A DNA stretch of 43,201 bases from Parcubacteria group bacterium CG1_02_39_15 (GCA_001872265.1 MNWE01000046.1:1-43201), one strand, 5' to 3'; shown: positions 7,840 through 26,698, counted from the first letter of the stretch. The notes: generated by a model not told the origin, from the sequence alone. Numbers and translations: made by a program.

Positions 7840-7918
7840 CGAGCAAAGATCGGGCTGTGCCCGATTTTCTATTAATCCGTGTTCATCTGTATTCACATCT
7901 GTGTGAATCTGTGTAAAA
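7840..7918. repeat. CACAGAT/ATCTGTG-family element, copy a, preceded by the hairpin ATCGGGC-TGT-GCCCGAT
   Basis: The words ATCCGTGTT, CATCTGTATT, CACATCTGTGTG and AATCTGTGTA sit directly upstream of rplC. Confidence 0.7.
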
Positions 7919-7919
7919 A

Positions 7920-8546
7920 ATGAAGTTTATTTTAGGCCAAAAATTAGGCATGTCACAGATTTTTGATGAAAAAGGAAACGCAGTTTCAGTTACTTTGATT
8001 GAGGCCGGGCCCTGTAAGGTTACTCAGATTAAGACTAAAGAAAAAGATGATTATCAGGCTGTCCAGATAGGATTTACTCCGAAAACAAAAAAAACCCTTC
8101 GGCAAGCTCAGGGTGGTGAGTCACGTCGAACCATAAAGAAAACTGAAAAAGGCAAAGAATTCAAATATTTAAGAGAGTTTCAGAATGGCGACCACAAAGT
8201 CGGGGACGAAATTAGCGCCTCGATTTTTCAGGAAGGAGACAAGGTAAAAATTTCCGGCACTTCCAAAGGAAAAGGATTTGCTGGAGCAGTAAAGCGATGG
8301 GGATTCAAGGGAAGATTGTCGGCCACTCACGGTACTAAGCACGAACTTCGCACTTTGGGTTCGGTGGGAACCTCCTTTCCCGAGAGGGTGATAAAGGGCA
8401 AAAAAATGTCAGGTCGCATGGGTTCAGAAAGGGTAACGATTAAAAATTTAAAAGTAGTAAAGGTTGATTCTGAAAATAATATTCTTGCCGTGGCAGGTGC
8501 CATTCCTGGCAGCAAAGGGACATTGCTTGAAATTTCTAATTCCTAA
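7920..8546 (+). CDS. rplC: 50S ribosomal protein L3
   Basis: GQKLGMSQIFDEKGN...GKGFAGAVKRWGF. Confidence 0.96.
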   Translation: MKFILGQKLGMSQIFDEKGNAVSVTLIEAGPCKVTQIKTKEKDDYQAVQIGFTPKTKKTLRQAQGGESRRTIKKTEKGKEFKYLREFQNGDHKVGDEISASIFQEGDKVKISGTSKGKGFAGAVKRWGFKGRLSATHGTKHELRTLGSVGTSFPERVIKGKKMSGRMGSERVTIKNLKVVKVDSENNILAVAGAIPGSKGTLLEISNS

Positions 8547-8563
8547 TTTCTAATATCTAATTT

Positions 8564-9208
8564 ATGAAAGTTTCTGTATACAGCCAAAAAGGAGAAAAAA
8601 TAAGCGAGACTTTGTTGCCAAAGGAGATTTTTGATGTAAAACTCAGCCCGGATTTAGTTCACCAGGTAGTTACCGTTCAGGCAGCTAATCGTCGACAAAC
8701 TTTGGCTCATACTAAAGACAGGGGAGAGGTTTCGGGCGGAGGGCGAAAGCCCTGGCGTCAAAAGGGGACGGGCAGGGCCAGGCACGGTTCAATTCGTTCT
8801 CCTTTGTGGAAAGGAGGCGGCGTGACTTTTGGTCCAAGAAAGGAAAAAGTTTTTAAGAAAAAAATTAACAAAAAAATGAAACGAGAAGCTTTGTTTATGG
8901 TCTTATCTGCCAAAGTAAAAAGCAATTTATTAATAATTTTTGATGAAATTAATCTTGAGACGCCTAAAACCAAATCTTTAGCTGAAATAATCAAAAATTG
9001 GAAATTAAAAATTAAAGATCTTAAAGAAGGTTCTATCTTGATGGCTTTGCCAAAAGCCGAAAAAAATTTGATTGTGGCTGCTAGAAATATCCCAAAAATT
9101 AATACCGTTGAAGCAAGAAACCTAAACGTTCTAGACCTGCTTTCTTTCAAATATTTAATAATGCCGAAGGAAACAATAAAAACAATAAAAGAAACCTTCT
9201 TAAAATAG
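8564..9208 (+). CDS. rplD: 50S ribosomal protein L4
   Basis: GGGRKPWRQKGTGRARHGSIRSPLWKGGG. Confidence 0.96.
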   Translation: MKVSVYSQKGEKISETLLPKEIFDVKLSPDLVHQVVTVQAANRRQTLAHTKDRGEVSGGGRKPWRQKGTGRARHGSIRSPLWKGGGVTFGPRKEKVFKKKINKKMKREALFMVLSAKVKSNLLIIFDEINLETPKTKSLAEIIKNWKLKIKDLKEGSILMALPKAEKNLIVAARNIPKINTVEARNLNVLDLLSFKYLIMPKETIKTIKETFLK

Positions 9209-9209
9209 C

Positions 9210-9590
9210 ATGGCATTGTTTAATGTTTTCAAAAAAAAGGAGAAGGAGGAGGTTAAAGTTGAAAAACCTTTAGAAGCGCCGATCAAAAAAGCGAAAGAAA
9301 GAAAATTTTTCGAAACATATAAAGTTTTGAAAACGCCCCATGTTACGGAGAAAGCATCCGATTTAGTTGGAAAAAATCAATATGTCTTTAAGATTGGGCC
9401 CCAGGCAAATAAAATAGAGATTAAGAAGGCAGTCGAAAGCTTATACGGGGTAGATGTAATTTCTGTTAAAATTATCAAAGCTCGGCCCAAAAGAAGAAAA
9501 TTAGGAAAGGTAAAAGGATGGAGGGCGGGATATAAAAAAGCTATTGTTAAAATCAAAGGAGGACAGAAGATTGAGGTGCTACCTCGATAA
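9210..9590 (+). CDS. rplW: 50S ribosomal protein L23 (with an N-terminal K/E-rich extension)
   Basis: PHVTEKAS...YVFKIGPQANKIEIKKAVE. Confidence 0.93.
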   Translation: MALFNVFKKKEKEEVKVEKPLEAPIKKAKERKFFETYKVLKTPHVTEKASDLVGKNQYVFKIGPQANKIEIKKAVESLYGVDVISVKIIKARPKRRKLGKVKGWRAGYKKAIVKIKGGQKIEVLPR

Positions 9591-9607
9591 TCTCTAAACA
9601 AATTCCA

Positions 9608-10393
9608 ATGGCCAAAATCCAAAAATCAAAAAGCATATTAACAAAGAAAGAGCCTGAGAGAAGGTGGCTTTTGGCTTTGAAGAGCAAAGCTGGTAGAACA
9701 GCTTCGGGCAGAATTACCGTACGGCATCGTGGCGGAGGAGTGAAACGACTCTATCGAGTTGCTGATTTTGGACAAGACAAATTAGGAGTAGTAGGTAAAG
9801 TTATTGCCTTGGAATACGATCCTTACCGAACAGCCTATCTTGTTTTGGTTGAATACCAAGACGGAGATCGAAGATATATTTTAGCCCCCTATCAGCTAAA
9901 TGTTGGTGATGAAATAATCTGTAATGAAGCTGCCGAAATCAAAATTGGCAACAGGATGAAACTAAAAAACATTCCAGTTGGTACTCAGGTATATAATATT
10001 GAATTGGAGCCTGGTAAGGGAGGGAAAATGGCAAGGTCAGCCGGTTCTACGGCTAAAGTTTTAGCCCGCGAAGCAGGGCTGACACATTTGGCAATGCCTT
10101 CGGGCGAAATTCGAAAAGTACCTCAAGAGTGCTTTGCCTCAATTGGTCAGGTGTCTCGGCCAGAGCATAGATTTATTACTATAGGTAAGGCTGGCAGGGT
10201 TAGGTTGAAGGGAAGAAGGCCTCAGGTTCGTGGGACAGCAATGAATCCTTGCGACCATCCTCATGGCGGCGGAGAAGGAAAGACCCCCATCGGTTTGAAA
10301 TATCCAAAAACTCCTTGGGGAAAGCCAGCTTTAGGAGTAAAAACGAGAAAGAAGAAGTGGACAGATAAATATATTGTTAAAAGAAGAAATTAG
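9608..10393 (+). CDS. rplB: 50S ribosomal protein L2
   Basis: GRITVRHRGGG and MNPCDHPHGGGEGK. Confidence 0.97.
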   Translation: MAKIQKSKSILTKKEPERRWLLALKSKAGRTASGRITVRHRGGGVKRLYRVADFGQDKLGVVGKVIALEYDPYRTAYLVLVEYQDGDRRYILAPYQLNVGDEIICNEAAEIKIGNRMKLKNIPVGTQVYNIELEPGKGGKMARSAGSTAKVLAREAGLTHLAMPSGEIRKVPQECFASIGQVSRPEHRFITIGKAGRVRLKGRRPQVRGTAMNPCDHPHGGGEGKTPIGLKYPKTPWGKPALGVKTRKKKWTDKYIVKRRN

Positions 10394-10507
10394 TCAAAGG
10401 GTTAGGAAGCCAGTTTGGTTTAGAGGTTAGGAAATTAACTTTTACTAACTTCTTAGCCTGATTTCCATACCGGCATCTTAACCTTAACCTACCTTCTGCT
10501 AAAAATA
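10394..10507. repeat. About 105-nt GTTAGG/CCTAAC element, copy B (inverted relative to copy A)
   Basis: See 3790-3900. By eye the two copies are roughly 80 percent identical in reverse complement. Confidence 0.8.
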
Positions 10508-10831
10508 ATGCCAAGAAGTTTAAAAAAAGGTCCATATACGCCAGAAAAGCTTTTAAAAAAGATTAGAGGGAAGAAACCTGATGCCAGAGAAGTTATTAAA
10601 ACTTGGTGTCGGGGCTGCACCATTACTCCCGAAATGGTTGGTTTTACCTTCGGAGTCCACAACGGCAAAGAGTTCCTGTCCGTGAAGGTAACTGAAAATA
10701 TGGTGGGGCATAAACTTGGCGAATTCGCCCCTACTACTAGATTCTCTCGTCACGGAGGAAGAATGCAGCGAGAAATAGAGACTAAAGTTGCTGAAAAGGA
10801 AACTGAACAAATAAAAAAAGCCGCTGAATAA
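10508..10831 (+). CDS. rpsS: 30S ribosomal protein S19 (with C-terminal extension)
   Basis: [10 protein letters not shown]...[13 protein letters not shown]. Confidence 0.96.
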
Positions 10832-10856
10832 ATCTCGTAAATCGTAAACCAATTTC

Positions 10857-11372
10857 ATGGCAGCGATGACCGCGAAATTAAAATATTTAAGAATAGCTCC
10901 AAGAAAAGTAAGGTTGGTTGTCAATTTGCTTCGAGGAAAGAAGGTTGAAGAAGCTCAAACAATTTTGAATTTTACAATCAAAAAGGCAAGCTTGCCCATA
11001 TTGAAGCTTTTAAATCAAGCAGTGGCCTCAGCTATTAATAATTTTCAATTGGATCCGGCAAATCTTTTTATTTCCAAGATTACGGTTGATGAGGGACCAA
11101 AATATAAAAGGTGGATTGCTCGAGCCAGAGGAAGCGCCAACGAGATTCAGAAAAAAACTTCACACATTACCATTGTCTTAGGCGAAATAAAAAAAGGAAA
11201 GGTTAAAAGGAAGAAAGTAAAGGCTGCTCCAGCAGAAGCAGTTGAGGAGAAAGAGAAGAAGACAGAAAGAACTCCTAAAATTCCTAAGCCAAGATTAAAA
11301 CCAGAAACCGAAGAAATTAAACCAAAGGTTGAGAAAAGCGTTCAGCGCATCTTTAGACGCAAAACGTTTTAA
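10857..11372 (+). CDS. rplV: 50S ribosomal protein L22 (with K/E-rich C-terminal extension)
   Basis: LRIAPRKVRLVVNLLRGK...ARARGSANEIQKKTSHI. Confidence 0.95.
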   Translation: MAAMTAKLKYLRIAPRKVRLVVNLLRGKKVEEAQTILNFTIKKASLPILKLLNQAVASAINNFQLDPANLFISKITVDEGPKYKRWIARARGSANEIQKKTSHITIVLGEIKKGKVKRKKVKAAPAEAVEEKEKKTERTPKIPKPRLKPETEEIKPKVEKSVQRIFRRKTF

Positions 11373-11381
11373 TTAGAAATC

Positions 11382-12050
11382 ATGAGCCATAAAGTTCACC
11401 CCGGAGCATTCAGAATAAAAGACAACAGCAGTTGGCTCTCTCGCTGGCTGAATAAAAAAAGATTCTCCCAAAACTTGGAGGAAGATTTTAAAATCAGAGA
11501 GTATCTGCAAAAAAGGATAGGAAAGTTAGGAGTGGAGAAGATTGAAATCGAAAGATTCGCTGGGAAAATTATGGTGATAATTTCTTCTGCTCGTCCAGGT
11601 TTAATTATTGGACGTGGAGGAGGGGGAGTGGAAGAATTGAAAAAAGAATTGGAAGTTTTTCTTACTAAAGAAAAACCCGTCAAAGCTTTAGCTCAGGCTT
11701 CTAAGAGAGAAATTAAAATAGACATTAAAGAAATAAAAGACCCGTGGAGTTCAGCTGCTTTAGCTGCTCAGTGGGCAGCTCAACAGATTGAAAGAAGGAT
11801 GCCTTACAGAAGAGTTTTAAAGCAATCCATCGAAAAAATTATGTCAGCCAAAGGAGCGGAGGGGTGTCGAGTAGAAATGGCGGGCAGGTTAAATGGAGTA
11901 GAAATTGCCCGAACTAACTGGTTGATGAAAGGACGACTTCCTCGCCAAAGCTTAAGAGCTGACATTGATTATGCCGAAGCTCGGGCTTACTGTACTTACG
12001 GAGTAATCGGAATAAAAGTTTGGATTTATAAAGGCGAACGCTTCGCTTAA
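11382..12050 (+). CDS. rpsC: 30S ribosomal protein S3
   Basis: MSHKVHPGAFR... with KH-domain GRGGGGVEELK. Confidence 0.96.
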   Translation: MSHKVHPGAFRIKDNSSWLSRWLNKKRFSQNLEEDFKIREYLQKRIGKLGVEKIEIERFAGKIMVIISSARPGLIIGRGGGGVEELKKELEVFLTKEKPVKALAQASKREIKIDIKEIKDPWSSAALAAQWAAQQIERRMPYRRVLKQSIEKIMSAKGAEGCRVEMAGRLNGVEIARTNWLMKGRLPRQSLRADIDYAEARAYCTYGVIGIKVWIYKGERFA

Positions 12051-12139
12051 TCGCTGATAAGTCGCTGATTTCTACGCTGATAAAACGCTGATTCAGCGTA
12101 AATTCGGCGTATAGTTCAGCGTTAGTTCAGCGGACACAC
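12051..12139. repeat. CGCTGA/TCAGCG palindromic intergenic element
   Basis: The left arm has 4 copies of CGCTGAT-type words. The right arm has 4 copies of TCAGCG/TCGGCG-type words. The switch is at CGCTGATTCAGCG. Confidence 0.8.
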
Positions 12140-12550
12140 ATGGCTATATTAATGCCCAAAAAAGTTAAACATAGAAAGTGGAGAAAAGGGAGAAGCAAGG
12201 AAGTAGAAAGTAGAGGCACTCAGCTTGCCTTTGGTTCTTTCGGATTAAAGAGTTTAGGAACTCGTTGGGTAAGCGGTCGCCAACTGGAAGCCGCCAGAAG
12301 GGTGATTCTTAGATATTTGAAAAAAGGAGGAAAACTTTGGATAAGAGTTTTTCCTGATAAGCCTGTAACTAAAAAAGGGACCGAAGTGCCCATGGGCGGA
12401 GGAAAGGGAAGCGTAGACCATTATGCTTTTCCTTTAAAACCAGGTAGAATAATTTTTGAATTAGATGGATTAAAAGAAGAAATAGCTCGGGAAGCCTTCA
12501 AGATGGCAGCCACAAAGTTTCCAGTAAAGACAAAAATTATAAAAAGATGA
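12140..12550 (+). CDS. rplP: 50S ribosomal protein L16
   Basis: KHRKWRKGR...PMGGGKGSVDHYA. An alternative ATG lies at 12152. Confidence 0.95.
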   Translation: MAILMPKKVKHRKWRKGRSKEVESRGTQLAFGSFGLKSLGTRWVSGRQLEAARRVILRYLKKGGKLWIRVFPDKPVTKKGTEVPMGGGKGSVDHYAFPLKPGRIIFELDGLKEEIAREAFKMAATKFPVKTKIIKR

Positions 12551-12732
12551 AGAAAATAGCAGAGCTTCGTCAAAAATCTAAATTGGAACTACAAAAATTA
12601 CTTCAAGACAATCGGGAAAGATTAAGGCAACTTAGGTTTGACTTAGCAGCCGGAAAAGTAAAAAATGTTAGAGAAATTCATCAAATTAAGAAAGATATTG
12701 CTCGAGCTTTAACTTTGCTAAAACAAAGCTAA
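12547..12732 (+). CDS. rpmC: 50S ribosomal protein L29
   Basis: ATGA overlap with rplP. ELRQKSKLELQKLL pattern. Confidence 0.93.
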   Translation: MKKIAELRQKSKLELQKLLQDNRERLRQLRFDLAAGKVKNVREIHQIKKDIARALTLLKQS

Positions 12733-12739
12733 TATCAAT

Positions 12740-12970
12740 ATGGCAAAGAAACAACTTACAGGTACAGTGATATCTGATAAAATGCAAAAAACTGTAGTAG
12801 TTTTGGTTGAAAGATTCAAACAGCATCCCAAATATAAAAGGCGATACCGTCTCCATAAAAAATATAAAGCCCACACTGACCAAGAATACAAGGTAGGCGA
12901 TCGAGTGGTCATCGAAGAGTGCCGTCCACTGAGCAAAGAAAAAAAATGGAAGGTTATTAAAAAAGCATGA
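12740..12970 (+). CDS. rpsQ: 30S ribosomal protein S17
   Basis: [14 protein letters not shown]...HPKYKRRY. Confidence 0.95.
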
Positions 12971-13338
12971 TTCAACCACGCACAATGTTAAATGTTGCCG
13001 ATAATAGTGGAGCGAAAATCCTCCAATGTTTTCATGTTTTGGGCGGGTCAAAGAGGCGTTATGCTCAGCTTGGCGATGCTATTGTTGGGACAGTAAAAGA
13101 GGCTGAACCGCGCAGATTAGTTAAAAAACATGATGTAGTAAGAGCAGTTATAGTTAGACAAAAAAAAGGATATCGCAGGCCAGACGGTTCTTATATCAGG
13201 TTTGATGACAACGCTTGCGTGGTTTTGGAAGGAAAAACAAAAGAACCCAAAGGAGGAAGGATTACGGGTCCGGTGGCGAGAGAGGTAAGAGAAAAAGGTT
13301 TTGAAAAAATTGCCACTTTGGCTCCAGAACTACTATGA
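12967..13338 (+). CDS. rplN: 50S ribosomal protein L14
   Basis: [17 protein letters not shown]. Confidence 0.97.
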
Positions 13339-13640
13339 AAGTTAAGAAAGGCGATACAGTTTTAATAATTTCTGGTAAAGATAGAGGAAAGAAGGGCAAG
13401 ATTTTAGAAGCTTTTCCTGAAGAAAGCAAAGTTGTGGTGGAGGGAGCAAATCTAAGAAAAAAACACCAAAGACCCAAAAAATCCGGCGAAAAAGGACAGA
13501 TTATAGAGCTAGCAACCCCCATGTCCGTTTCTAACGTTAAGCTTATTTGTCCTAAATGCGGTAAAGCCGCCAAGACGGGACATAAGATTACCGAAAAAAA
13601 TAAATTTAGAATTTGTAAACAATGTGGCCAGGAAATCTGA
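13335..13640 (+). CDS. rplX: 50S ribosomal protein L24
   Basis: [18 protein letters not shown] (KOW motif), with a C-terminal CxxC...CxxC. Confidence 0.95.
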
Positions 13641-13653
13641 ATCACAGTAATAT

Positions 13654-14211
13654 ATGCTTAGATTAAGTGAGAAATATAAAAAAGAAGTGATTCCGACGAT
13701 GAAAGAAAAATTTGGCTATAAAAATGAAATGGCGGTTCCTAAGGTTGAAAAAGTGATAGTGAATACTGGGTTTGGCGGGCAGGTGGCTGGAAAAACTTCC
13801 GAGGAACAAAAGAAAATCCAAGATTTTATTTTAGGAGAGCTGGCTTTAATTTGTGGCCAAAAACCAATTTTAACTAAGGCAAAAAAATCAATATCTAGTT
13901 TTAAAATTAGAGAAGGAATGCCGGTCGGAGCCCGGCTTACTTTAAGAGGGAAGAAGATGATAGACTTTTTAGAAAGATTAATTCATTTAGCCCTTCCTCG
14001 AACCCGTGATTTTCAGGGAATACCCCGAGACTCGGCGGATAAGGATGGCAATTTAACTATTGGTATTAAGGAACACATTGCTTTCCCTGAAATTTTACCA
14101 GAGAGAGCAAAGAATATTTTCGGTTTAGAAATAACAGTAGTCACCACAGCTAAAAACAAAGAGGAGGGACTAGAGTTGTTAAAATTACTGGGATTTCCAA
14201 TCAAGAGTTAA
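13654..14211 (+). CDS. rplE: 50S ribosomal protein L5
   Basis: PKVEKVIVNTG...MPVGARLTLRG. Confidence 0.96.
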   Translation: MLRLSEKYKKEVIPTMKEKFGYKNEMAVPKVEKVIVNTGFGGQVAGKTSEEQKKIQDFILGELALICGQKPILTKAKKSISSFKIREGMPVGARLTLRGKKMIDFLERLIHLALPRTRDFQGIPRDSADKDGNLTIGIKEHIAFPEILPERAKNIFGLEITVVTTAKNKEEGLELLKLLGFPIKS

Positions 14212-14316
14212 TACGCACAGATTCACACCGATTTGAACATAGATTTACACAGATCCGTGTTAATCTGTGTAAGCGTGCGAAGCACGCGAAATTATCTGTG
14301 TTGATCCGTGTATTAC
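14212..14316. repeat. CACAGAT/ATCTGTG-family element, copy b, with core AATCTGTGTAAGCGTGCGAAGCACGCGAAA
   Basis: The left arm has CACAGAT words and the right arm has ATCTGTG/ATCCGTG words. The core is almost identical to 26630-26660. Confidence 0.85.
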
Positions 14317-14502
14317 ATGGCGACAAAAGCACAAATAGCAAAATCAAAAAGGAAACCAAAATTTAAAAGTCGAGTGGTGAGACGTTGTTTTCGCTGTGGT
14401 CGGAAGCGAGGATACATGCGTAAGTTCGGGTTGTGCAGGATTTGTTTTAGAGAAATGGCCAACAAAGGAGAAATACCCGGCGTAACAAAGAGTAGTTGGT
14501 AG
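14317..14502 (+). CDS. rpsN: 30S ribosomal protein S14 type Z (zinc-binding)
   Basis: 61 aa with CFRCGR...CRIC. The GTG at 14308 lies inside the repeat, so ATG 14317 is preferred. Confidence 0.93.
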
Positions 14503-14512
14503 AAAAAAATCT

Positions 14513-14899
14513 ATGGATCCCGTAACTGATATACTCAATAGAATAAGAAACTCTCAGGCTGTTAGCAAAGAAACAGTTGAGATTTCTTTTTCTAATTTAA
14601 GATATGAGATAGCGAAAATTTTAGAGAAACAGGGATTTATAGAAAAAGCGGAAAAGAAAGGAAGAAAAGCAAAAAAAATTATTGAAATAACTTTGAAATA
14701 TCTTAATAAGCAGCCGGCCATTTCCGGGTTAAAAAGAATATCTAAGCCAGGCAAAAGAATTTACAAAAGCTATCAAAAAATAGGCAAAGTAAGAGGAGGC
14801 TACGGCATAGCTATCATTTCCACATCGAAAGGGTTGATAACAGACAAAGAGGCCCGGCGCCAGAAACTGGGCGGCGAAGTCATATGCGAAATATGGTAA
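14513..14899 (+). CDS. rpsH: 30S ribosomal protein S8
   Basis: DPVTDILNRIRN...GGEVICEIW. Confidence 0.96.
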   Translation: MDPVTDILNRIRNSQAVSKETVEISFSNLRYEIAKILEKQGFIEKAEKKGRKAKKIIEITLKYLNKQPAISGLKRISKPGKRIYKSYQKIGKVRGGYGIAIISTSKGLITDKEARRQKLGGEVICEIW

Positions 14900-15030
14900 A
14901 ATTCCAAATCACAAATTCCAAATCACAAACAAATTCCAAATTCCAAATTCAAAATTCAAAACCTGTTTTGGTCATTGGAATTTTGGTTATTGGTGCTTGT
15001 TTGGAGTTTGGTGCTTGGGATTTGTAATTT
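14900..15030. repeat. CCAAATT-family palindromic element, copy 4 (long form)
   Basis: It fills the whole rpsH-rplF spacer and has complementary arms. Confidence 0.9.
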
Positions 15031-15031
15031 T

Positions 15032-15574: not shown

Positions 15575-15583
15575 TTTAGAACA

Positions 15584-15940
15584 ATGCGAAAGAAACAAGA
15601 AAAAAGAGTAAGACGTCACAAACGAGTAAGAGCTAAAGCATTTGGCACCAACAAGAGGCCGCGGCTTTGTGTTTTTAAATCAAGTAAGCATATTTATGCC
15701 CAATTGATTGACGACGAGAAAGGAAAAACAATTACCGCTGCCAGCGATTCAGAATTGCAACCAAAAACAAAAAAAGGAAAATCAAAAGTGGCAGTTGCCT
15801 ACGAAGTAGGGAAACTGATTGCCAAAAAAGCTTTAGGAAAAAAGTTCGCTGAGGTAATTTTTGACAGAGGAGGATATCGATATCAAGGAAGAGTAAAAGC
15901 CTTAGCTGAGGGGGCAAGGGAAGGAGGACTTAAATTTTAA
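15584..15940 (+). CDS. rplR: 50S ribosomal protein L18
   Basis: [20 protein letters not shown]...[24 protein letters not shown]. Confidence 0.96.
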
Positions 15941-19069: not shown

Positions 19070-19815
19070 TAATTGTTAAAACTCCAGAAGAGATAAAGAT
19101 AATGGCGGAAGGCGGGAAAATCCTGGCGAATATTATGAAAGAGTTGGAAAAGAATGTTGGACCAGGAATCACCACCAAAGAATTAGACGAGCTCGCAGAA
19201 GAGCTCATTTTAAAATCCGGCGGAAAATGTTCTTTTAAAAATTATCAGGGATTTCCCGCTTGCCTTTGTACTTCTATAAATGAAGAAATCGTTCATGTTA
19301 TTCCTTCAGACAGAAAATTAAAAGAGGGAGATATAATTTCTTTAGATATCGGAATGAAATATAAAGGATTTCATACGGACATGGCGATTACAATCCCAGT
19401 GGGCAAGGTTTGTCCGGAAGTCCAAAGATTAATTCGAGTTACCAAAAAAGCATTAAAAAGAGGAATTAAAAAAGCGAGAATCGGTAATACTTTTGGCGAT
19501 ATTTCGAATACCATTCAAAGATACGTAGAAGGCCAGGGCTACAATGTGGTAAGGGAACTTTGCGGCCACGGAATTGGGAAAGAAATCCACGAAGAGCCGC
19601 AAATTTTAAATTTCGGCAAAAGAAGGGCCGGGTCAGAAATTAAAGAAGGGATGACTTTTTGCATAGAGCCCATGATAACGGTGGGGGATTGGAAGTTAAA
19701 GAAAGCAAAAGACGGCCATGGCTTTGAAACCGATGACGGCTCTTTGTCTTGCCACTTCGAGCACACTATTGCCGCAACTAAAGATGGAGCTAAAATCTTA
19801 ACTATGATAAAATAG
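19066..19815 (+). CDS. map: Type I methionine aminopeptidase
   Basis: DIGMKYKGFHTDMA, GHGIGKEIHEEP and EHTI motifs. Confidence 0.96.
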   Translation: MIIVKTPEEIKIMAEGGKILANIMKELEKNVGPGITTKELDELAEELILKSGGKCSFKNYQGFPACLCTSINEEIVHVIPSDRKLKEGDIISLDIGMKYKGFHTDMAITIPVGKVCPEVQRLIRVTKKALKRGIKKARIGNTFGDISNTIQRYVEGQGYNVVRELCGHGIGKEIHEEPQILNFGKRRAGSEIKEGMTFCIEPMITVGDWKLKKAKDGHGFETDDGSLSCHFEHTIAATKDGAKILTMIK

Positions 19816-19821
19816 TTTAAT

Positions 19822-20562
19822 ATGCGGCTTTCAGTAGTAATTCCGGCTTACAACGAAGAGAAAAGGATATCAAAAACCTTAGAAGATATTGATAAATATT
19901 TAAAGAATCAGAATTACGATTACGAGATTTTAGTTGTTAATGATGGCTCAAAGGATAAAACAGTAGAAGTTGCTGAAAGTTTAATCCCCAGGATAAAAAA
20001 TTTAAAGGTTACTGGCTATAAAATAAACCAAGGAAAAGGGTATGCGGTTCGCTTTGGCATGGCAGAGGCAAAAGGGGATTATAGGCTATTTACCGACGCT
20101 GATAACTCCACTCCGATTGCGGAAGTAGAAAAAATGTGGCCCTATTTTAAAGGGACTTGCCCTGAGCCAATCGAAGGGTACGATATCATTATTGGTTCGA
20201 GAGATATCAAAGGGGCAGTATTATCTCCTCCTCAGCCTCCCATTAGAAGACTTACTGGAGAGGCCTTTGGTTTTTTGACTAATTTAATCGTTGGCACCTG
20301 GGGTCTCGCCGATAGCCAGTGCGGCTTCAAGGGATTTACTAAAAAAGTAGCCGAAGACATTTTCCCTAGATGTAAAATTAATCGTTTTTCTTTTGACCCG
20401 GAATTTTTAGCAATCGCTAAAAAATTAGGATACAAAATAAAAGAAATCCCGATTTTTTGGAGAAACGATCTTCGTAGCACGGTCAAGTTTAAATCAATGG
20501 TCAAAATGGGCATAGATTTGCTCAAAATTAGATGGAATTTAATAACTAAAAAATATGACTAA
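19822..20562 (+). CDS. Family 2 glycosyltransferase (polyprenol-phosphate glycosyltransferase-like)
   Basis: VVIPAYNEE, VVNDGSKD and TDADNS (DxD) motifs. Confidence 0.85.
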   Translation: MRLSVVIPAYNEEKRISKTLEDIDKYLKNQNYDYEILVVNDGSKDKTVEVAESLIPRIKNLKVTGYKINQGKGYAVRFGMAEAKGDYRLFTDADNSTPIAEVEKMWPYFKGTCPEPIEGYDIIIGSRDIKGAVLSPPQPPIRRLTGEAFGFLTNLIVGTWGLADSQCGFKGFTKKVAEDIFPRCKINRFSFDPEFLAIAKKLGYKIKEIPIFWRNDLRSTVKFKSMVKMGIDLLKIRWNLITKKYD

Positions 20563-21652
20563 AGGGTCCCAAAAAGTTTACCCTGTTAAATCCCGCAAAG
20601 CAGGAATTTCGCTAAAGGCGAAATTATTTAACAGGGTAAAATTTCCTTCGGAGCTTCGTTTTGATTTAATATCCAAAGACTGGGTGGTTATTGCTACCGG
20701 CAGGGCCAGAAGGCCGGAAACCTTTAAAGCTGAACAAAGAAAAATAGATAAAGTTCCCAAGTCCGAGTGCCCTTTCTGTAAAATTGCTACCCAGGAGAAG
20801 CCCACCCTCATTTTTTCTAATGGCAAAAAAATGCCTCAAAGCAAAGGAATTCCCAAAAATTGGACCACTATTGTTATTCCCAATAAATACCCCGCTTTTC
20901 TTCCTTTTCCGAAATTAGATAAACATATAGAAGGAGGTTTATATGAAACAGTGAACGCAGTGGGCTTTCACGAGGTGGTGGTTACCAGAAGCCACGAAAA
21001 GCAATTGGCCCAGTTTTCCTTAAAAGAAGTAAAAGAAGTATTTGATGTTTATCAAGAAAGATACCGAGATTTAATGAAGAAAAATTTCGTGAATCATATT
21101 TCTATTTTTCACAATCATGGTTTTGAATCTGGAGCATCAATTGCTCACCCTCATTCTCAGATTATTACCACTCCTTTAGTTGATGTTGATGTTCAAAAAG
21201 GCCTTTTAAATTCTGAAAAATATTTTAAGACAAATAGAAAATGTATTTATTGCCAGATGAACGAATGGGAGAGGAAAGTGAAGAAAAGGGTAATTTTTGA
21301 AAATAAACAATTTTTAGCCGTTTGTCCTTTTGCCTCAAAATCCGCCTTTCAGGTTATTGTTTCGCCAAAATCACACCTTTCTTATTTTGAAAAGGCGAAT
21401 GATGAGGAAAAACGGCAGTTGTCAGAAGCTTTCAGAGCGGCGTTAAAAAAAGTCTACAAAGGATTAGACGACCCTCCCTACAACTTTTATTTGCACACCG
21501 CTCCCTGCGACGGTAAAAAATACGGTTATTACCACTGGCATTGGACCATTTTGCCCAAAACCGCCACCTGGGCAGGTTTTGAACTGGGAGCAAGAATGGA
21601 AATTTCCACCATTGCGCCAGAAAAAGCCGCCGCATATTTAAGAAAACAGTAA
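20555..21652 (+). CDS. galT: Galactose-1-phosphate uridylyltransferase-like HIT-superfamily protein
   Basis: N-terminal CPFC, the HPHSQI histidine triad variant, and two half-domains. Confidence 0.75.
   Translation: MTKGSQKVYPVKSRKAGISLKAKLFNRVKFPSELRFDLISKDWVVIATGRARRPETFKAEQRKIDKVPKSECPFCKIATQEKPTLIFSNGKKMPQSKGIPKNWTTIVIPNKYPAFLPFPKLDKHIEGGLYETVNAVGFHEVVVTRSHEKQLAQFSLKEVKEVFDVYQERYRDLMKKNFVNHISIFHNHGFESGASIAHPHSQIITTPLVDVDVQKGLLNSEKYFKTNRKCIYCQMNEWERKVKKRVIFENKQFLAVCPFASKSAFQVIVSPKSHLSYFEKANDEEKRQLSEAFRAALKKVYKGLDDPPYNFYLHTAPCDGKKYGYYHWHWTILPKTATWAGFELGARMEISTIAPEKAAAYLRKQ
20578..20639. repeat. 62-nt nested palindrome inside the 5' end of the galT-like CDS
   Basis: The outer stem is TTACCCTGTTAAAT / ATTTAACAGGGTAA. 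The inner stem is AATTTCGC-TAAAG-GCGAAATT. Confidence 0.8.
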
Positions 21653-21668
21653 GGTTGCTCGGCAACTA

Positions 21669-21781
21669 AGTTTTGAAAGTACCGCTCCTCAAAGTCCCTG
21701 CGAGATTTTGGGAGCTGCGCTCTCAGCGATTTACCCTTCGGGACCATGCTAAATCGCTTCCGAGAGCTACTTTAAAACTTG
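21669..21781. repeat. About 113-nt long imperfect hairpin element with an apical CCC-UUC-GGG
   Basis: The outer stem is AAGTTTTGAAAGTA / TACTTTAAAACTT. The inner stem is GCTCTCAGCGATTTA / TAAATCGCTTCCGAGAGC. Confidence 0.7.
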
Positions 21782-21798
21782 TTGCCTCGCTAAAACTT

Positions 21799-22548
21799 AT
21801 GGTTAAAATTATTATTATAGCCAATTGGAAGATGAATCCCGCAACCCTTACTGAGGCTAAGCGGAATTTTGAGATTATCAAAAAGGGAGTTAGAAATATT
21901 AAAAAGGTAGAACCTGTAATTTGTGCTCCTTTTATTTTTCTGCCCGTTTTAAAAGCGACCAATTATCTTAAGCTTGGAGCTCAGGATTGTTTTTTGGGGG
22001 AAAGGGGTCCTTTTACTGGTGAGGTTTCGCCTAAACAGCTTAAAAGTTTGGGAGTAGGTTATGTAATTTTGGGACATTCTGAAAGAAGGAAGCACTCCGG
22101 AGAATTAACAGAATTAGTTAACCGGAAAATAATAGCCGCTTTGGGAGCCGGCCTTAAAGTTATTTTTTGTGTCGGTAGCGAAACAAAAAAGCCCGGTAAA
22201 GAAATGAGATATCAACTAAAGACTGGGTTAAAGGGAGTAAAAAAGCAAGACGTGGCTAAATTAGTTTTCGTTTATGAACCGGTCTGGGCCATCAGCACGA
22301 GCAAGAATAAAGTGGTTGCTACCCCCCAAGAAGCATTGAAAGGCGGCCTTTATATAAGAGATATTTTGGGAAAAATATTTGACGAAGAAACAGCCAAAAA
22401 AGCCAAGATTATTTATGGCGGCAGTGTTGACAGCAGCAATATAAGAGGATTTATTAAGGAGGGCAAAATGGCCGGTGGCTTGCCGGGAGCCGCTTCTTTG
22501 GACCCCCATGAATTTATTAGGATGGTCAAGGCGGTCGATGAATCTTAA
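21799..22548 (+). CDS. tpiA: Triosephosphate isomerase
   Basis: IIIANWKMN, ILGHSERR and YEPVWAI motifs. The ORF-track start at 21673 lies in the hairpin element. Confidence 0.93.
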   Translation: MVKIIIIANWKMNPATLTEAKRNFEIIKKGVRNIKKVEPVICAPFIFLPVLKATNYLKLGAQDCFLGERGPFTGEVSPKQLKSLGVGYVILGHSERRKHSGELTELVNRKIIAALGAGLKVIFCVGSETKKPGKEMRYQLKTGLKGVKKQDVAKLVFVYEPVWAISTSKNKVVATPQEALKGGLYIRDILGKIFDEETAKKAKIIYGGSVDSSNIRGFIKEGKMAGGLPGAASLDPHEFIRMVKAVDES

Positions 22549-22593
22549 GGTCGTTGATTTTACTAACAAAACTTGCTAAGATAATTAAGATAT

Positions 22594-23109
22594 ATGGAGA
22601 AGATTTCCAATGGATATTTTTATAATCCTACTAAGGGCAACCTCAAAATAAATGGGGTGATTGAAGAATTGCGGCATTACATCTCTGAAAAACCAGAGAA
22701 GTTTTATGATATTATTGTCGGCTGCGATTCCTCCTCGGGAGAGGAGCCTCATTTCCCCTTAGCAGTAGTTATTTTGCGGACCGGAGAGGGAGGCCGTTTT
22801 TTTCTTAAAAAAGTCGCCTATAAGGGCAGAAAATTTTACAATTGGAAGCAGAGAATTTTAGAAGAAGTTTTTCTTTCCTGCCAGTTAGCTTTATATTTAA
22901 GAGAAAACTTTGAAAAAAACCTTCAAGACCTTAATTCTCCCGACAATATCCGTTATCAATTCCGCTATATTCACGCCGACGTCGGAGAAAACGGCAAAAC
23001 GAAAAATATGATTAAGGAAGTCACCGGTTTGATTAAAGGAAACGGCTTTGAGCCAAAAATAAAACCAGAATCTTTTGTCGCTTCAACCGTAGCTGACAGA
23101 TATTCTTAA
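22594..23109 (+). CDS. DUF458 / YkuK-like RNase H-fold protein
   Basis: VGCDSS..., HADVGENGKTKNMIKEVTG and KIKPESFVASTVADRYS resemble Bacillus YkuK (recalled from memory). Confidence 0.6.
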   Translation: MEKISNGYFYNPTKGNLKINGVIEELRHYISEKPEKFYDIIVGCDSSSGEEPHFPLAVVILRTGEGGRFFLKKVAYKGRKFYNWKQRILEEVFLSCQLALYLRENFEKNLQDLNSPDNIRYQFRYIHADVGENGKTKNMIKEVTGLIKGNGFEPKIKPESFVASTVADRYS

Positions 23110-23111
23110 AA

Positions 23112-24782
23112 ATGACCTTTGCTAAATTGCGTAGAGATTTTTTAGCTTTTTTTGAGAAGAGGGGACACAAGATTGTCCCTTCTTCTTCGCTTATGCCCAC
23201 TGACCCCTCGGTTCTTTTTACTTCAGCTGGCATGCAGCAGTTCAAACCCTATTATTTGGGCGAAAAATCGCCTTACGGGCTAAATGTTGCGACTTGCCAG
23301 AAATGTTTCAGAACCTCTGATATTGAAGAAGTTGGTGACGAAAGCCATTTAACTTTTTTGGAAATGCTGGGCAATTTTTCTTTCGGAGGATATTTTAAAA
23401 AAGAAGCAATTAAACTCGCTTTTGAGCTCGTAAATTCCACATTCCAAATTCCAAAATCCAAAATGACGATTACTGTTTTTGGCGGCGACAAAGAAGTGCC
23501 AGAAGATAAAGAATCAGCAGAAATTTGGAAAAAATTAGGAATACCGGAAGAAAAAATAAAAAAATGCGGTAGAGAAGATAATTTTTGGGGTCCCACCGGC
23601 GAGGAAGGGCCCTGCGGACCTACCACCGAAATTCATATAAATGGCATAGAAGTTTGGAACTTAGTCTTTAATGAATTTTATCAAAACAAGAATAAGAAAC
23701 TGACGCCTTTAGAACAGAAGGGGGTTGACACTGGCATGGGGCTGGAGAGGTTGGCGATGGTAGCTCAAAACAAACCCAGTGTATTTGAAACCGATTTATT
23801 TGAACCGTTTATCCGAGAACTTCCCGAGACTAATATTAAAGCCAGAAGAATTATCGCAGATCACATTAGAGGTTCAGTTTTCTTAATCTCCGAAGGAATT
23901 TTACCTTCCAACGTAGAACAAGGATATATTTTAAGAAGAATTTTAAGAAGAACAATTCGTTATGGGAAATTGCTTAACTTAGTTAAGCAATTTCTAATTC
24001 CCCTGGCACAAAGAGTGATTGAGATTTACAAAGACATTTATCCCGAATTAAAATCCAAAGAAGCCGACATTTTAACGGTTATTCAGAACGAAGAAGAAAA
24101 GTTTGAAAAAACTTTGGAAATAGGAATTAAGCAATTCGGAAAGGTTGCTCTTCGGGGAGCGATTTCGGGCAAAGATGCTTTTCACCTTTTCGACACTTAT
24201 GGATTTCCGTTAGAACTGACCCAGGAATTAGCCAAAGAAAAAGGGATAAAGGTTGACACGGAGGGATTTAAAGCAGCGTTTGAAAAACACCGGGAAATCT
24301 CCAGGGCCGGAGTTGAAAAGAAATTTGGCGGAGTGGGGAAAGGCGCAACTATAGAAGCCGCGAAATTGCATACTGCCACTCACTTATTGCACGCTGCTCT
24401 CAGAGAAGTTTTAGGCGAGCACGTTCAACAAATGGGTTCAGATATTACTTCCCAGAGGTTGCGTTTTGATTTTTCTCATCCTGTCAAAATGACCCAAGAA
24501 CAAGTTAAAAAAGTTGAAGACTTGGTTAATCAAAAAATAAGAGAAGATTTAGAAGTGAAAAAGGAAGAAACGGATTATCAAACAGCTGTAAAATCTGGAG
24601 CGTTGGCGTTCTTCAAAGACAAGTATCCCGGGAAAGTGACCGTCTATTCTATAAGGGGATTTTCTAAGGAAATTTGCGCTGGACCTCATGCAAAAAAAAC
24701 CGGAGAGCTCAGCCATTTTAGAATTATAAAAGAAGAATCGTCCGGCTCGGGCGTTAGGAGAATTAGAGCAATATTAAAATAA
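23112..24782 (+). CDS. alaS: Alanine--tRNA ligase, short form lacking the C-Ala domain
   Basis: FTSAGMQQFKP, DTGMGLERL, and editing motifs HTATHLLH and CAGPH. Only 556 aa. Confidence 0.93.
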   Translation: MTFAKLRRDFLAFFEKRGHKIVPSSSLMPTDPSVLFTSAGMQQFKPYYLGEKSPYGLNVATCQKCFRTSDIEEVGDESHLTFLEMLGNFSFGGYFKKEAIKLAFELVNSTFQIPKSKMTITVFGGDKEVPEDKESAEIWKKLGIPEEKIKKCGREDNFWGPTGEEGPCGPTTEIHINGIEVWNLVFNEFYQNKNKKLTPLEQKGVDTGMGLERLAMVAQNKPSVFETDLFEPFIRELPETNIKARRIIADHIRGSVFLISEGILPSNVEQGYILRRILRRTIRYGKLLNLVKQFLIPLAQRVIEIYKDIYPELKSKEADILTVIQNEEEKFEKTLEIGIKQFGKVALRGAISGKDAFHLFDTYGFPLELTQELAKEKGIKVDTEGFKAAFEKHREISRAGVEKKFGGVGKGATIEAAKLHTATHLLHAALREVLGEHVQQMGSDITSQRLRFDFSHPVKMTQEQVKKVEDLVNQKIREDLEVKKEETDYQTAVKSGALAFFKDKYPGKVTVYSIRGFSKEICAGPHAKKTGELSHFRIIKEESSGSGVRRIRAILK

Positions 24783-24811
24783 TTTGATATAATAAATGAA
24801 GTATTACCACT

Positions 24812-26092
24812 ATGGAGAAAAGAGTAATTGATATTTCTCCCCCGGGGAAGAAAAAAGAAAAAGAGATTAGAGAGGAATTGCCTCCAGTAAGAGAGCCAAG
24901 TTTTAGCTTTAAGAGACCTGAAATAAAAATTACGGCTCCGAAACTTCCTTTTAATAAGGTTTTCTTAGTTATTGCCGCAGTTTTAATAATAATTGGAGTG
25001 ATTGTTAGTTCCAGTCTGTCGCGGGCCGAAATTGAAATAAAGCCAGAAATAGAAATTTTGACTTTCAAAACCAAAGCAACAGTAGACAAATCCGCAGAAG
25101 CAATTAATTTTTTAGATAAGGTAGTCCCGGGGAAAATTTTTCAGACTGAAAAAACGGTTTCTGGGGATTTTTCTTCTTCCGGCGAGATGTCAGAGGCTAA
25201 GAAAGCTGAAGGTACAATTAAGATCTATAATAATTATAATTCACCCCAAGTTTTAGTAGCCCAGACGAGATTCCAGGCGCCTTTAGAAAAATTTCAGCCT
25301 TCTCTCGAGAAAGGAGAAAACCCATGGTTCAGAACCGTAGAAAGGGTAGTTATCCCAACTAAGGGGCAAGTTGATGTTAAAGTAATAGCTGATAGCCCGG
25401 GCGAAAAATATAATATTGAAGCTTCAACTTTTTCTGTTCCTGGTTTGGCTGGAACTCCTCAATACACATTTGTTTATGGCAAGTCTTCTGAGTCAATAAA
25501 GGGGGGCATGTTAGCAAGAACCTCCCAAGTTACCCAGGAAGATTTAGATAAGGCAAAAGAGTCGCTTACGGAAAAAGCCAAAAAAGAATGCAACGAAGAT
25601 TTAAAAAATAAAATTTCAGCTGACTTCGCCTTCTTGGCAGAAGCCACAACAACGGAAATCATTGAGGCTAGCTCTTTGGCAAAACCCGGAGTGGGTTTGG
25701 AAAAATTTAATTATCAAGTAAAAGCTCGTTCACTTACTTTAGCTTTTAAGGTGGAAGACCTTAAGAAATTCGCTAACGAATTTATTTTATCTCAAGTCCC
25801 CGACAATAAAGTAATTTATCCGGCGAGTTTGAAAGTAAATTATTTTTTGACCAACTCCACCTTAGAGGCAGGGAAAATCATTCTTTCTTTAGATTTGGAA
25901 GCTAAAATTTATTCGGACATCGACGAGACCGCATTAAAAAGAGCTTTGGAAAAGAAATCGGCCGCCGAAGCTAAATTGTTTTTGGAGGGGCAGCCAGAAA
26001 TTAGCGAGGCTAAAATCAAGCTTTGGCCATTTTGGGTAAAGGAGATTCCCGCTGAAGAAGGGAAGGTTAAAATAACCTTAAGGATTGACTAA
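24812..26092 (+). CDS. Hypothetical single-pass membrane-anchored protein
   Basis: A charged N-terminus is followed by a TM helix (VFLVIAAVLIIIGVIV) and a large extracytoplasmic part. I recognise no family. Confidence 0.6.
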   Translation: MEKRVIDISPPGKKKEKEIREELPPVREPSFSFKRPEIKITAPKLPFNKVFLVIAAVLIIIGVIVSSSLSRAEIEIKPEIEILTFKTKATVDKSAEAINFLDKVVPGKIFQTEKTVSGDFSSSGEMSEAKKAEGTIKIYNNYNSPQVLVAQTRFQAPLEKFQPSLEKGENPWFRTVERVVIPTKGQVDVKVIADSPGEKYNIEASTFSVPGLAGTPQYTFVYGKSSESIKGGMLARTSQVTQEDLDKAKESLTEKAKKECNEDLKNKISADFAFLAEATTTEIIEASSLAKPGVGLEKFNYQVKARSLTLAFKVEDLKKFANEFILSQVPDNKVIYPASLKVNYFLTNSTLEAGKIILSLDLEAKIYSDIDETALKRALEKKSAAEAKLFLEGQPEISEAKIKLWPFWVKEIPAEEGKVKITLRID

Positions 26093-26131
26093 AGAAGAAA
26101 TGCTTGGTATATTATCTAATTGTATTTAAAG

Positions 26132-26350
26132 ATGAATAAAAAAAATTTTTCTCGTCAATTCGGGACAATTTTAGAAGCCTTGCCTAGCGCCAATTTCAAA
26201 GTAAGATTAGATGACGGAAGAGAGGCGCTTTGCCATCTGGCGGGGAAACTGAGGATATATCATATTAAGATCTTGCCCGGCGACAGAGTTCAGGTTGAAT
26301 TAAGCCCCTACGATGAGAAAAGAGGAAGGATCGTTTATAGAGAAAAATAG
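26132..26350 (+). CDS. infA: Translation initiation factor IF-1
   Basis: 72 aa, [19 protein letters not shown]...[13 protein letters not shown] (S1-like fold). Confidence 0.95.
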
Positions 26351-26425
26351 TCAATGAAGCTAAAGCTTCATTTCCATCTGCGCTTTCACATATTTTATTA
26401 ATATAAAATGAATAAAGCTTGATAA

Positions 26426-26539
26426 ATGAAAGTTAGACCATCAGTAAAAAAAATTTGTAAGAAATGCAAAATCGTCCGCCGAAAAGGACGAGTTTATGTC
26501 ATTTGTAAAAATCCCAGACATAAACAACGCCAAGGCTGA
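26426..26539 (+). CDS. rpmJ: 50S ribosomal protein L36
   Basis: Hand-translated 37 aa, [37 protein letters not shown]. It is below the ORF-track cutoff. Confidence 0.93.
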
Positions 26540-26698
26540 CAATTCGCTTCGCGAACACACGGATTTACACAGATGAGCGTCGCCTTCGGCGACTGCACAG
26601 ATATACACAGATTATTTTTATCCGTGTCAATCTGTGTAAGCGTGCAGAGCACGCGAAAATATCCGTGTAGATCTGTGTATTTTGCGAAGCAAAATTAC
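26540..26698. repeat. CACAGAT/ATCTGTG-family element, copy c, with GUCGCC-UUCG-GGCGAC, GCGUGC-AGA-GCACGC and UUUUGC-GAA-GCAAAA hairpins
   Basis: It shares the core AATCTGTGTAAGCGTGC.GAGCACGCGAAA with 14212-14316. Confidence 0.85.

Follow-up and report, generated by a model that had tools for sequence, protein, structure and literature searches.

The 43,201-nt stretch of DNA analysed here (MNWE01000046.1, Parcubacteria group bacterium CG1_02_39_15; hereafter, the window) carries the str/S10/spc/alpha ribosomal-protein cluster of an uncultured groundwater bacterium of Candidatus Nealsonbacteria (Candidate Phyla Radiation, CPR/Patescibacteria), which is the name carried by the SecY homologues. 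Three of its intergenic spacers, a (rpsJ-rplC), b (rplE-rpsN) and c (rpmJ-rpsM), contain periodic arrays of the word ATCYGTG, in b and c together with its complement CACRGAT. We propose, with a probability of about 60%, that these spacers hold gene-less members of a class of palindromic elements associated with a small nuclease, similar to MITEs (miniature transposable elements with inverted repeats) or to REPINs (hairpin-forming doublets of repetitive extragenic palindromic, REP, sequences), and not a regulatory signal of the ribosomal genes. The proposal builds on four observations: the copies belong to a wider family by word, period, layout and model score, nuclease genes are associated with arms made of such words, the elements are present at the ribosomal junctions in a lineage-specific manner, and sister families in the same cluster are polymorphic between strains.

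Structure of the three spacer copies

A preliminary description of this DNA had reported a palindromic family in the three spacers, and word enrichment, folding and the alignment of b with c all agree that the family is real. Counted on both strands, ATCYGTG has 20 matches in 43.2 kb, compared with 3.74 ± 2.2 in dinucleotide shuffles, of which 0 of 100 reach 20; 17 of the 20 ATCYGTG/CACRGAT matches fall within spacers a, b and c. The word starts are spaced by 10-11 nt, at 7875/7886/7897/7907 in a, at 14253/14263 and 14294/14304 in b, and at 26558/26568, 26596/26606, 26620/26630 and 26661/26671 in c. The three copies are composed of the following features.

7846..7871, + strand: GC hairpin with T-tract, AAAGATCGGGC-TGT-GCCCGATTTTCT, directly upstream of array a
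7875..7914, + strand: copy a, right-arm-only array of the words ATCCGTGT, ATCTGTAT, ATCTGTGT and ATCTGTGT, period 11/11/10 nt, ending 5 nt before the rplC ATG (7920)
14216..14254, + strand: copy b left arm, CACAGAT 14216, CACCGAT 14226, CATAGAT 14238 and CACAGAT 14248; match to covariance model R1 (see below) at 14216-14269, E 1.4e-5
14253..14311, + strand: copy b right arm, ATCCGTGT, ATCTGTGT, hairpin GCGTGC-GAA-GCACGC (14273-14287), ATCTGTGT, ATCCGTGT, ending 5 nt before the rpsN ATG (14317)
26546..26574, + strand: copy c outer left arm, CGCGAAC 26550 (within stem GCTTCGCGAA), CACGGAT 26558 and CACAGAT 26568; R1 match 26585-26688, E 3.8e-7
26579..26593, + strand: copy c first internal GC hairpin, GTCGCC-TTC-GGCGAC, with no counterpart in b
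26596..26636, + strand: copy c inner hairpin, CACAGAT twice, 7-nt loop, ATCCGTG and ATCTGTG; R1 minus-strand match 26586-26648, E 4.9e-7
26640..26654, + strand: copy c second internal GC hairpin, GCGTGC-AGA-GCACGC, centre of the core common to b
26661..26690, + strand: copy c outer right arm, ATCCGTGT 26661, ATCTGTGT 26671 and TTTTGCG 26680 (within stem TTTTGCGAAGC), ending 8 nt before the rpsM ATG (26699, which corrects an earlier 26700)

Left CACAGAT words with right ATCTGTG/ATCCGTG words had been described for all three spacers. Two pairing inverted arms are indeed present in b and c, whereas copy a has the right arm only and is a right-arm remnant or a solo arm. The core of about 30 nt quoted for b and c was found as described: b (14262-14290) has AATCTGTGTAAGCGTGC-GAA-GCACGCGAAA, c (26629-26658) differs from it by its AGA loop, and the GC hairpin GCGTGC/GCACGC lies inside the core in both copies. 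The claim that every copy ends a few nt before a start codon is correct for a and b (5 nt) and, at 8 nt, for the outer arm of c, but the last ATCTGTGT word of c is 20 nt away from the ATG.

The predicted fold of c reaches -74.6 kcal/mol (z -8.3 versus shuffles) and is nested, with an outer stem and a word arm around three hairpins. Copy b folds at -40.3 kcal/mol (z -4.0), and the fold of copy a is weak (z -2.7). Copy b aligns with c from end to end and is a shortened version of it, missing three parts of c: the outer pair of arms, the first GC hairpin and a 9-nt centre. In both, the same word pairs enclose the same GC hairpin; the two are paralogues, copies of a single composite element. Contigs of GCA_002792815.1, GCA_002772015.1 and many groundwater assemblies of JGI and ENA code for an L5 protein identical to that of the window, and 8-9 independent assemblies from JGI, ENA and NCBI agree in every base of spacers a, b and c (9 for spacer a). 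Therefore, they are no assembly artefact.

Some ordinary identities were set aside. An intrinsic terminator is ruled out for b and c, as their internal GC hairpins are followed by GAAAAT/GAAATT without a U-tract; the only T-tract is that of the hairpin at 7846-7871, which precedes array a and is separate from it. Inspection also ruled out DnaA boxes or IHF sites as the identity of the words (TTATCCGTG, not TTATCCACA); a few outer words incidentally create TGTGGATAA. A promoter and terminator consensus scan over 7400-27200 gave counts not above those of shuffles and was uninformative.

A cross-phylum palindrome family and its nuclease gene

We scanned one genome per bacterial species (185k species genomes) with the word pair ATCYGTGTNNATCYGTGTA and obtained at least 134 matches in at least 120 loci (L014-L133). 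The same word, period and inverted layout was present in more than 100 loci of unrelated phyla; among the matches listed, the hosts were Bacteroidota, Verrucomicrobiota, Planctomycetota, Acidobacteriota, Chloroflexota, Omnitrophota, spirochaetes, some Proteobacteria and CPR bacteria. A third word, not required by the query, stands at +9/+10 in 69% of the 134 matches listed and mostly ends in GTGG, and exact CACRGAT words occur no more than 120 nt upstream in half of the matches listed; the scan matches are therefore not due to chance. The consensus of the element is CCACRGAT-ta-CACRGAT-nnn-CACRGAT, a 10-45-nt loop, and ATCYGTG-tnn-ATCYGTG-ta-ATCYGTGG. In 13 clean copies 96% of cells pair, and a position outside the words (columns 1/95) co-varies, being AU in 7, UA in 3, GC in 2 and GU in 1. 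The 27-nt triple-word arm also has 15 occurrences in viral contigs. Tandem arrays were seen as well: L025 (988-1793) contains six whole hairpins, L115 (5660-5973) five left arms followed by one right arm, L081 (1-260) repeated right-arm-only units upstream of a nuclease gene of the GxxExxY family introduced below, and L044 (2932-4189) further tandem arrays.

A covariance model, R1, was built from 13 elements of other phyla, and its top matches in the window were c (35.2 bits, E 3.8e-7) and b (29.3 bits, E 1.4e-5), which is an only partly independent test because the source loci had been found with a window-derived pattern. R1 does not detect copy a, and it has no match in about 100 kb of flanks and relatives. 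Its next matches in the window, 17030-17107 (E 0.017) and 12050-12134 (E 0.17, sixth-ranked and third distinct locus), are both spacers with hairpins of other words. The words in a, b and c are of the family's types, CRCnRAT on the left and ATYnGYG on the right, their 10-11-nt spacing lies within its 9-11-nt range, and the spacing in the outer right arm of c, 10 and then 9 nt, is that of the cross-phylum consensus. By word, period, layout and model score, b and c belong to this family. The preliminary description had also considered whether the arrays might reduce to local low-complexity sequence; this does not hold, since the family is conserved far beyond close relatives, and for the same reason its absence from close relatives (see below) is no sign of low complexity.

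One copy interrupts an rRNA gene. In a Candidatus Falkowbacteria locus (L052), 8 nt of the 23S rRNA, at Rfam model positions ~225-232, have given way to a 90-nt hairpin with 4+4 CACAGAT/ATCTGTG words, an insert that fits the definition of an intervening sequence (IVS) of rRNA. Known IVSs have a stem of about 28 bp formed by terminal inverted repeats, sometimes contain an open reading frame (ORF) and are cut out by RNase III; they are considered selfish and acquired by horizontal transfer (PMC4990558). The same 23S rRNA gene (L052 1-1779) has two further insertions, of ~65 and ~33 nt, in its first 400 model positions.

An all-against-all comparison of the ORFs near the matches yielded one recurrent family, in 8 of the 120 loci listed. 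It is a protein of about 125 aa that belongs to Pfam PF13366 (PDDEXK_3, E 1e-41) and to NCBIfam TIGR04256 ('GxxExxY protein'), within the PD-(D/E)XK superfamily. In the scan loci, a left and a right arm enclose its gene in five cases and complete hairpins flank it in the others, and 9 of the 10 GxxExxY ORFs among the 120 loci listed sit at a word match. For the reverse test we picked 82 GxxExxY loci by protein similarity only (2 viral ones from a 4-sequence alignment and 80 from metagenomes). Across the ±200-nt flanks, 41 of these 82 genes showed a strong ungapped inverted repeat of periodic words, compared with 1 of 86 size-matched control ORFs, and R1 matched next to the gene in 16 of the 82 (22-58 bits). 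The contigs with GxxExxY genes (P0121-P0240) are mostly 0.5-3 kb long, which fits multi-copy repeats breaking metagenome assemblies.

Read by eye, the cassettes have the form aaCCRCnnn(n)..CRCnnn..CRCnnn, gene, ..GYG..GYG..GYGGtt. Their words share a CRC....AT / AT....GYG skeleton in which the 3-4 nt after CRC set the type (GAAA, AGAT, GAAT, GGAT, TAAT, AAAT or TGAT), and the AGAT/GGAT types of the window occur in 12 of the 38 typed cassettes. Protein identity is 55.7% within a word type versus 47.5% (permutation p = 0.0005), with shared host ancestry as a possible confound. The arms of the 41 cassettes, taken on the gene-sense strand, contain 176 mismatches: 38 G.U, 38 A.C and 100 others, many of them in the linkers between words.

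The GxxExxY family is listed as 'function unknown' (PMC3424549) and is very large, with more than 7,000 PDDEXK_3 clusters at E<1e-10 in one search. An AlphaFold model of the protein (pLDDT 94.8) has Cas4 SSO0001, lambda-exonuclease-like enzymes and the AddAB nuclease domain as its nearest solved folds, and a PDB sequence search with the family profile gave no significant match. The residues E29, D69, E79-x-K81 and Q93 are conserved, and the model is consistent with an active minimal nuclease. We searched the literature by sequence strings and by family names and found no description of the repeat or of its link to GxxExxY genes; the strings had no match, and the names led only to a table giving the function as unknown and to passing mentions. 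The element class is apparently widespread and undescribed.

A strict period of 9-11 bp could also mean that the words are duplex-DNA binding sites on one helix face for a host protein of the nucleoid or response-regulator-like kind, the hairpin potential being incidental. This would agree with the words being better conserved than the 2-3-nt linkers, with the 100 of 176 arm mismatches that are neither G.U nor A.C, and with the lack of strand bias. We nevertheless find it very improbable: flank positions outside the words co-vary and keep the arms complementary (the columns 1/95 noted above), and the arrays cross phyla, reach high local copy numbers, sit inside a 23S rRNA gene and bracket a nuclease gene. 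If the binder were the element's own nuclease, this explanation would overlap with the element reading that we prefer.

Origin of the elements in the ribosomal-protein cluster

We compared the clusters of seven related Nealsonbacteria (L011-L013, L218-L220; SecY 82-91% identical). Conservation in close relatives was not observed, as none of the seven loci has a CACAGAT/ATCYGTG element at b or c, and both junctions are short and unoccupied in most of them. The rplE-rpsN gap is 13 nt in L011 and 55 nt without periodic words in L012, and the two genes abut in L013 and L219; rpsM follows rpmJ within a few nt in L011, L012 and L218. Where a hairpin is present, the same layout is built from different words: TACGAAT/ATTCGTA at site b in L218 and TTGTTAAA-type words at site c in L013. 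At site a, the GC hairpin with its T-tract is conserved in five species (homologous in L011, L012 and L219; gATCGGGCtatGCCCGATtttctatt in L218), and the word array after it varies: ATCYGTG here, ATCAGCG in L218 (four times, with CACTGAT/CGCTGAT words on the far side), ATTNGCA in L011 and ATCAGNG in L012.

These junctions bear on the idea that the arrays are cis-acting RNA of the ribosomal super-operon, such as RNase III processing sites, stabilisers, attenuators or binding sites of a translational regulator before starts without a Shine-Dalgarno (SD) motif. A regulator-binding role of this kind has been proposed for the TAACTGA heptamer repeats of Beggiatoaceae (PMC4679880), and RNase III cuts known rRNA intervening sequences that have similar stems (PMC4990558). 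The folds of b and c are very stable, 5-20 nt (5-8 nt for the outer arms) separate the arrays from starts without SD, and word hairpins are confined, in the sequence examined, to the translation-gene cluster, with none in the 20 kb of metabolic genes flanking the window. Still, such a function is improbable, because the arrays are not kept at the same junctions in the closest relatives and the same element stands in unrelated contexts in other phyla. The two strands also fold equally well, with antisense values of -77.3 (c) and -38.7 kcal/mol (b) beside the sense values of -74.6 and -40.3. Together with the equal numbers of G.U and A.C mismatches in the 41 cassettes (38 vs 38), this amounts to no RNA-level strand signal and therefore no sign of selection for one transcript strand. 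A symmetric DNA element whose words are recognition sites and whose arms are kept complementary fits this pattern.

SD motifs are missing genome-wide and not only at the arrays: before the 55 starts in the window there are 5 weak matches, and the start regions are A/T-rich. Since these motifs are lacking throughout the window, their lack beside the arrays is uninformative, and the hairpins are ruled out as the cause of SD loss. At the gathering threshold, Rfam gave no match in spacers a, b and c, and in the window and 18+2 element-rich loci it returned no element family, only tRNAs, a group I intron, riboswitches and LSU rRNA. Membership among the conserved ribosomal-protein leaders or autoregulatory RNAs was thereby rejected, with no Rfam match and no CACAGAT element at b or c in relatives.

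A periodic word with its complement after it had been noted as the layout of the CCAAATT family as well, and several other word families of the window indeed have it. At least four further families fill most of the long spacers of the translation cluster.

1456-2157, 3199-3291, 6064-6253, 14900-14974, 16506-16571, 17016-17106 and 29392-29522: spacers of the CCAAATT/CACAAAT family
3787-3900 and 10394-10507: spacers of the GGTTAGG/CCTAACC family
35489-35632: spacer of the TATATC/GAGATAAA family
12051..12139, + strand: rpsC-rplP spacer, CGCTGAT four times and then TCAGCG four times, ending ..GCGG; CRCnGAT skeleton, R1 E 0.17

The CGCTGAT palindrome is probably a sister family; CGCTGAT-type arms flank GxxExxY genes in L153 and L169 and occupy three spacers in L218. 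Too few copies of the CCAAATT and GGTTAGG families occur in 1.15 Mb of foreign loci for them to be assigned, and R1 gives these families only weak matches (E 0.02-0.9).

Assemblies that are 99.8-100% identical to the window (strain comparison over L001, L216, L217 and L223-L228) differ by whole hairpins of these other families. In place of the 114-nt GGTTAGG-type hairpin at 3787-3900, two assemblies (L001, L216) have 12 nt; the 144-nt hairpin at 35489-35632 is missing in one assembly (L217), where the genes overlap as TAATG; and a 123-nt CCAAATT-family hairpin between rpsM and rpsK (window 27089-27094) is present in six assemblies and not in the window. Some inserts are in frame. Other strains have a palindromic insert of 54 nt in rplB (after window 9878; L003 5969-6022), giving an L2 of 279-283 vs 261 aa, and some have a 45-nt insert in a GalT-like gene (after window 20594; L003 16743-16795), giving 380 vs 365 aa. 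The rplB insert is of the same unit type as the repeats at 30377-30666.

These repeats lie in a 290-nt spacer that opens with three direct copies, two full and one diverged, of a hairpin unit of 45 nt (ATCTCTTC...GAAGAGAT). Directly after it comes a Cas4-like PD-(D/E)XK gene (30667-31356, 229 aa; PF12705 29.6 bits, Cas_Cas4 just below cutoff), which is a candidate for a local nuclease of the hairpin elements. As a relative of GxxExxY it was rejected: hhalign found no detectable relation beyond the QxxxY motif region.

In the reading that we prefer, each arm is an array of 7-8-nt words (CACRGAT left, ATCYGTG(T) right) about one helical turn apart, with the two arms inverted. The full-length form brackets the ~125-aa GxxExxY gene, each arm having three words and the outer ends being aaCCRC... 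to the left and ...GYGGtt to the right, and short forms are scattered in intergenic DNA, one of them interrupting a 23S rRNA gene. As for the mechanism, the elements may move or be copied as DNA, the putative agent being a nuclease, either a GxxExxY protein or another Cas4-like enzyme, that would be specific for the words or the structure and act in trans on the arrays or on an extruded hairpin. Tandem words would slip, arms would convert one another, and word identity would thereby drift in concert; we propose this drift as the reason why different words stand at the same junction in sister species, and to this extent the generic mechanism of the preliminary description is retained. Insertions could persist between a stop and the next start codon because the paired arms would fold the insert out and keep stop and start adjacent in the mRNA; in rRNA, the folded insert would be a helix extension like an IVS.

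Alternatively, the hairpins could have been made in place, with slippage expanding any word and inverted duplication or arm conversion supplying its complement, and no mobile element or dedicated protein involved. In favour of this, one layout is common to several word families of the window; each array is homogeneous in itself, but the arrays differ between species, with different words at the same junctions and, at site a, next to one and the same conserved hairpin; some arrays have right arms only (copy a, L081, L128); and arms have multiplied in tandem in L025 and L115. We consider it unlikely as the origin of the elements and probably a true secondary process that shapes word drift. In particular, b and c have a composite structure in common at two distant junctions, near-identical strains differ by whole hairpins and not by one repeat unit, the words are confined to the CRC....AT skeleton, and an identical word, period and three-word arm ending in GTGG surrounds one gene family across phyla. 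The preliminary description had seen in the shared layout an argument for a generic mechanism rather than one mobile sequence; this is not borne out, given the paralogous composites b and c, the more than 100 cross-phylum loci, the bracketed GxxExxY genes, the ranks of the R1 matches and the CRC skeleton.

Several points weigh against the element reading. At site a, different word types stand beside the same conserved hairpin, for which concerted change in place is simpler than repeated insertion. The strains sampled show no variation in copies a, b and c, so that their own mobility was not seen, and filled and empty sites show no clear target-site duplication. An hmmsearch found no GxxExxY gene in 63 kb of this genome (window plus 20-kb flanks), nor in the relatives' loci L001-L013, and there is no further CACAGAT copy in the 20 kb flanking the window. 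The window copies are also non-canonical, with two ATCYGTG words and an odd outer word per arm, embedded GC hairpins and no terminal GTGG. Specifically, b has four degenerate words per arm, and in c, with three words per arm, the outermost are of another type (CGCGAAC at 26550, TTTTGCG at 26680) and lack the GG of the canonical CCRC.../...GYGG. At least five word families in a genome of ~1 Mb strain a model of one nuclease per word.

A bolder generalisation is that CRC-word palindromes and GxxExxY nucleases form a new class of hairpin mobile elements across bacteria, a functional analogue of the REPINs and their REP-associated tyrosine transposases (RAYTs) on a Cas4-like fold, whose gene-less derivatives invade rRNA genes and the stop/start junctions of CPR ribosomal operons and whose words diversify with the nuclease. 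We offer this tentatively, as a possibility and not as an expectation.

Two features elsewhere in the window are recorded for completeness. A group I intron (42842-43069; Rfam, 89.7 bits) lies ~60 nt upstream of the tRNA-Met gene at the window end (43132-43201) and may be inside another tRNA gene. Between alaS and infA, a 426-aa ORF (24812-26092) with a weak Baseplate_J-like match is kept in the same place in relatives.

Comparison with known systems

Among known systems, the REP/REPIN palindromes with their RAYT (TnpA_REP, HUH Y1; PMC3337134, PMC3733652) resemble the present family in several respects: many short gene-less intergenic palindromes with non-autonomous hairpin behaviour, a single small gene flanked by inverted repeats, and co-variation of gene and repeat type. 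The enzyme, however, is an HUH Y1 transposase there and a PD-(D/E)XK GxxExxY protein here, for which we infer mobilisation. REPIN arms are a single GC-rich stem with a GTAG/CGTC tag, whereas here there are three periodic 7-nt words that are AT-rich and without a GTAG/CGTC head. REPINs are found mainly in Proteobacteria, and the present family in Bacteroidota, the Planctomycetes-Verrucomicrobia-Chlamydiae (PVC) group, Acidobacteriota, Chloroflexota and CPR bacteria. Membership in REP/REPIN was rejected: GxxExxY is the only gene family that recurs beside the elements in the 120 loci listed, and no RAYT does.

The 23S/16S rRNA IVSs of Coxiella and Leptospira, with their S23p ORF (PMC4990558), are alike in the inverted-repeat stem, in the occasional ORF in the loop and in a sporadic, apparently horizontal distribution, and they are tolerated in an essential transcript by folding out, as the copy in the 23S rRNA of L052 would be. 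They differ in their cargo, a four-helix-bundle S23p protein versus GxxExxY, and the window copies are not rRNA IVSs, as they lie in mRNA spacers. Periodic-word arms are not described for classical IVSs in PMC4990558.

Bacterial MITEs (Correia/CREE, BOX, ERIC, MITEAba12; PMC3184786, PMC6382973) are likewise elements of ~100-160 nt with inverted ends, intergenic, co-transcribed and present or absent by strain. In contrast to them, the present elements have ends made of repeated words and a word family that spans phyla, and neither a DDE-transposase parent nor a target-site duplication was found. Inverted ends are present, and no parent insertion sequence occurs in the loci examined.

Cyanobacterial STRR heptamers are reportedly intergenic heptamer repeats as well. 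The TAACTGA direct repeats of Beggiatoaceae, Cyanobacteria and Bacteroidetes (PMC4679880) are comparable in that their words stand before start codons, including those of ribosomal-protein operons, and in a patchy cross-phylum distribution with no known vector. Both kinds of heptamer repeat (TAACTGA, STRR) differ in being head-to-tail 7-nt tandems with almost no inverted partner, whereas the present arrays have a 9-11-nt period with linkers, inverted arms and a partner gene. The ends of Tn7 and Mu have several directly repeated transposase-binding words each, and the two ends are inverted, as in the present element; the latter is only tens of nt long and has no DDE transposase, the only candidate enzyme being a minimal nuclease.

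If the element reading is correct, its stereotyped DNA partner gives the GxxExxY family a directly testable role, and some of the sporadic rRNA intervening sequences, as well as the unusually long structured spacers in CPR ribosomal operons, could have originated from the elements. Such repeats break metagenome assemblies and create strain-level indels, some of them in frame in ribosomal-protein genes, a point of practical importance when CPR bacteria are binned or placed by marker-gene phylogeny. In addition, they would represent a second, independent case of one small gene accompanied by a swarm of hairpins, an arrangement so far known from REPIN/RAYT.

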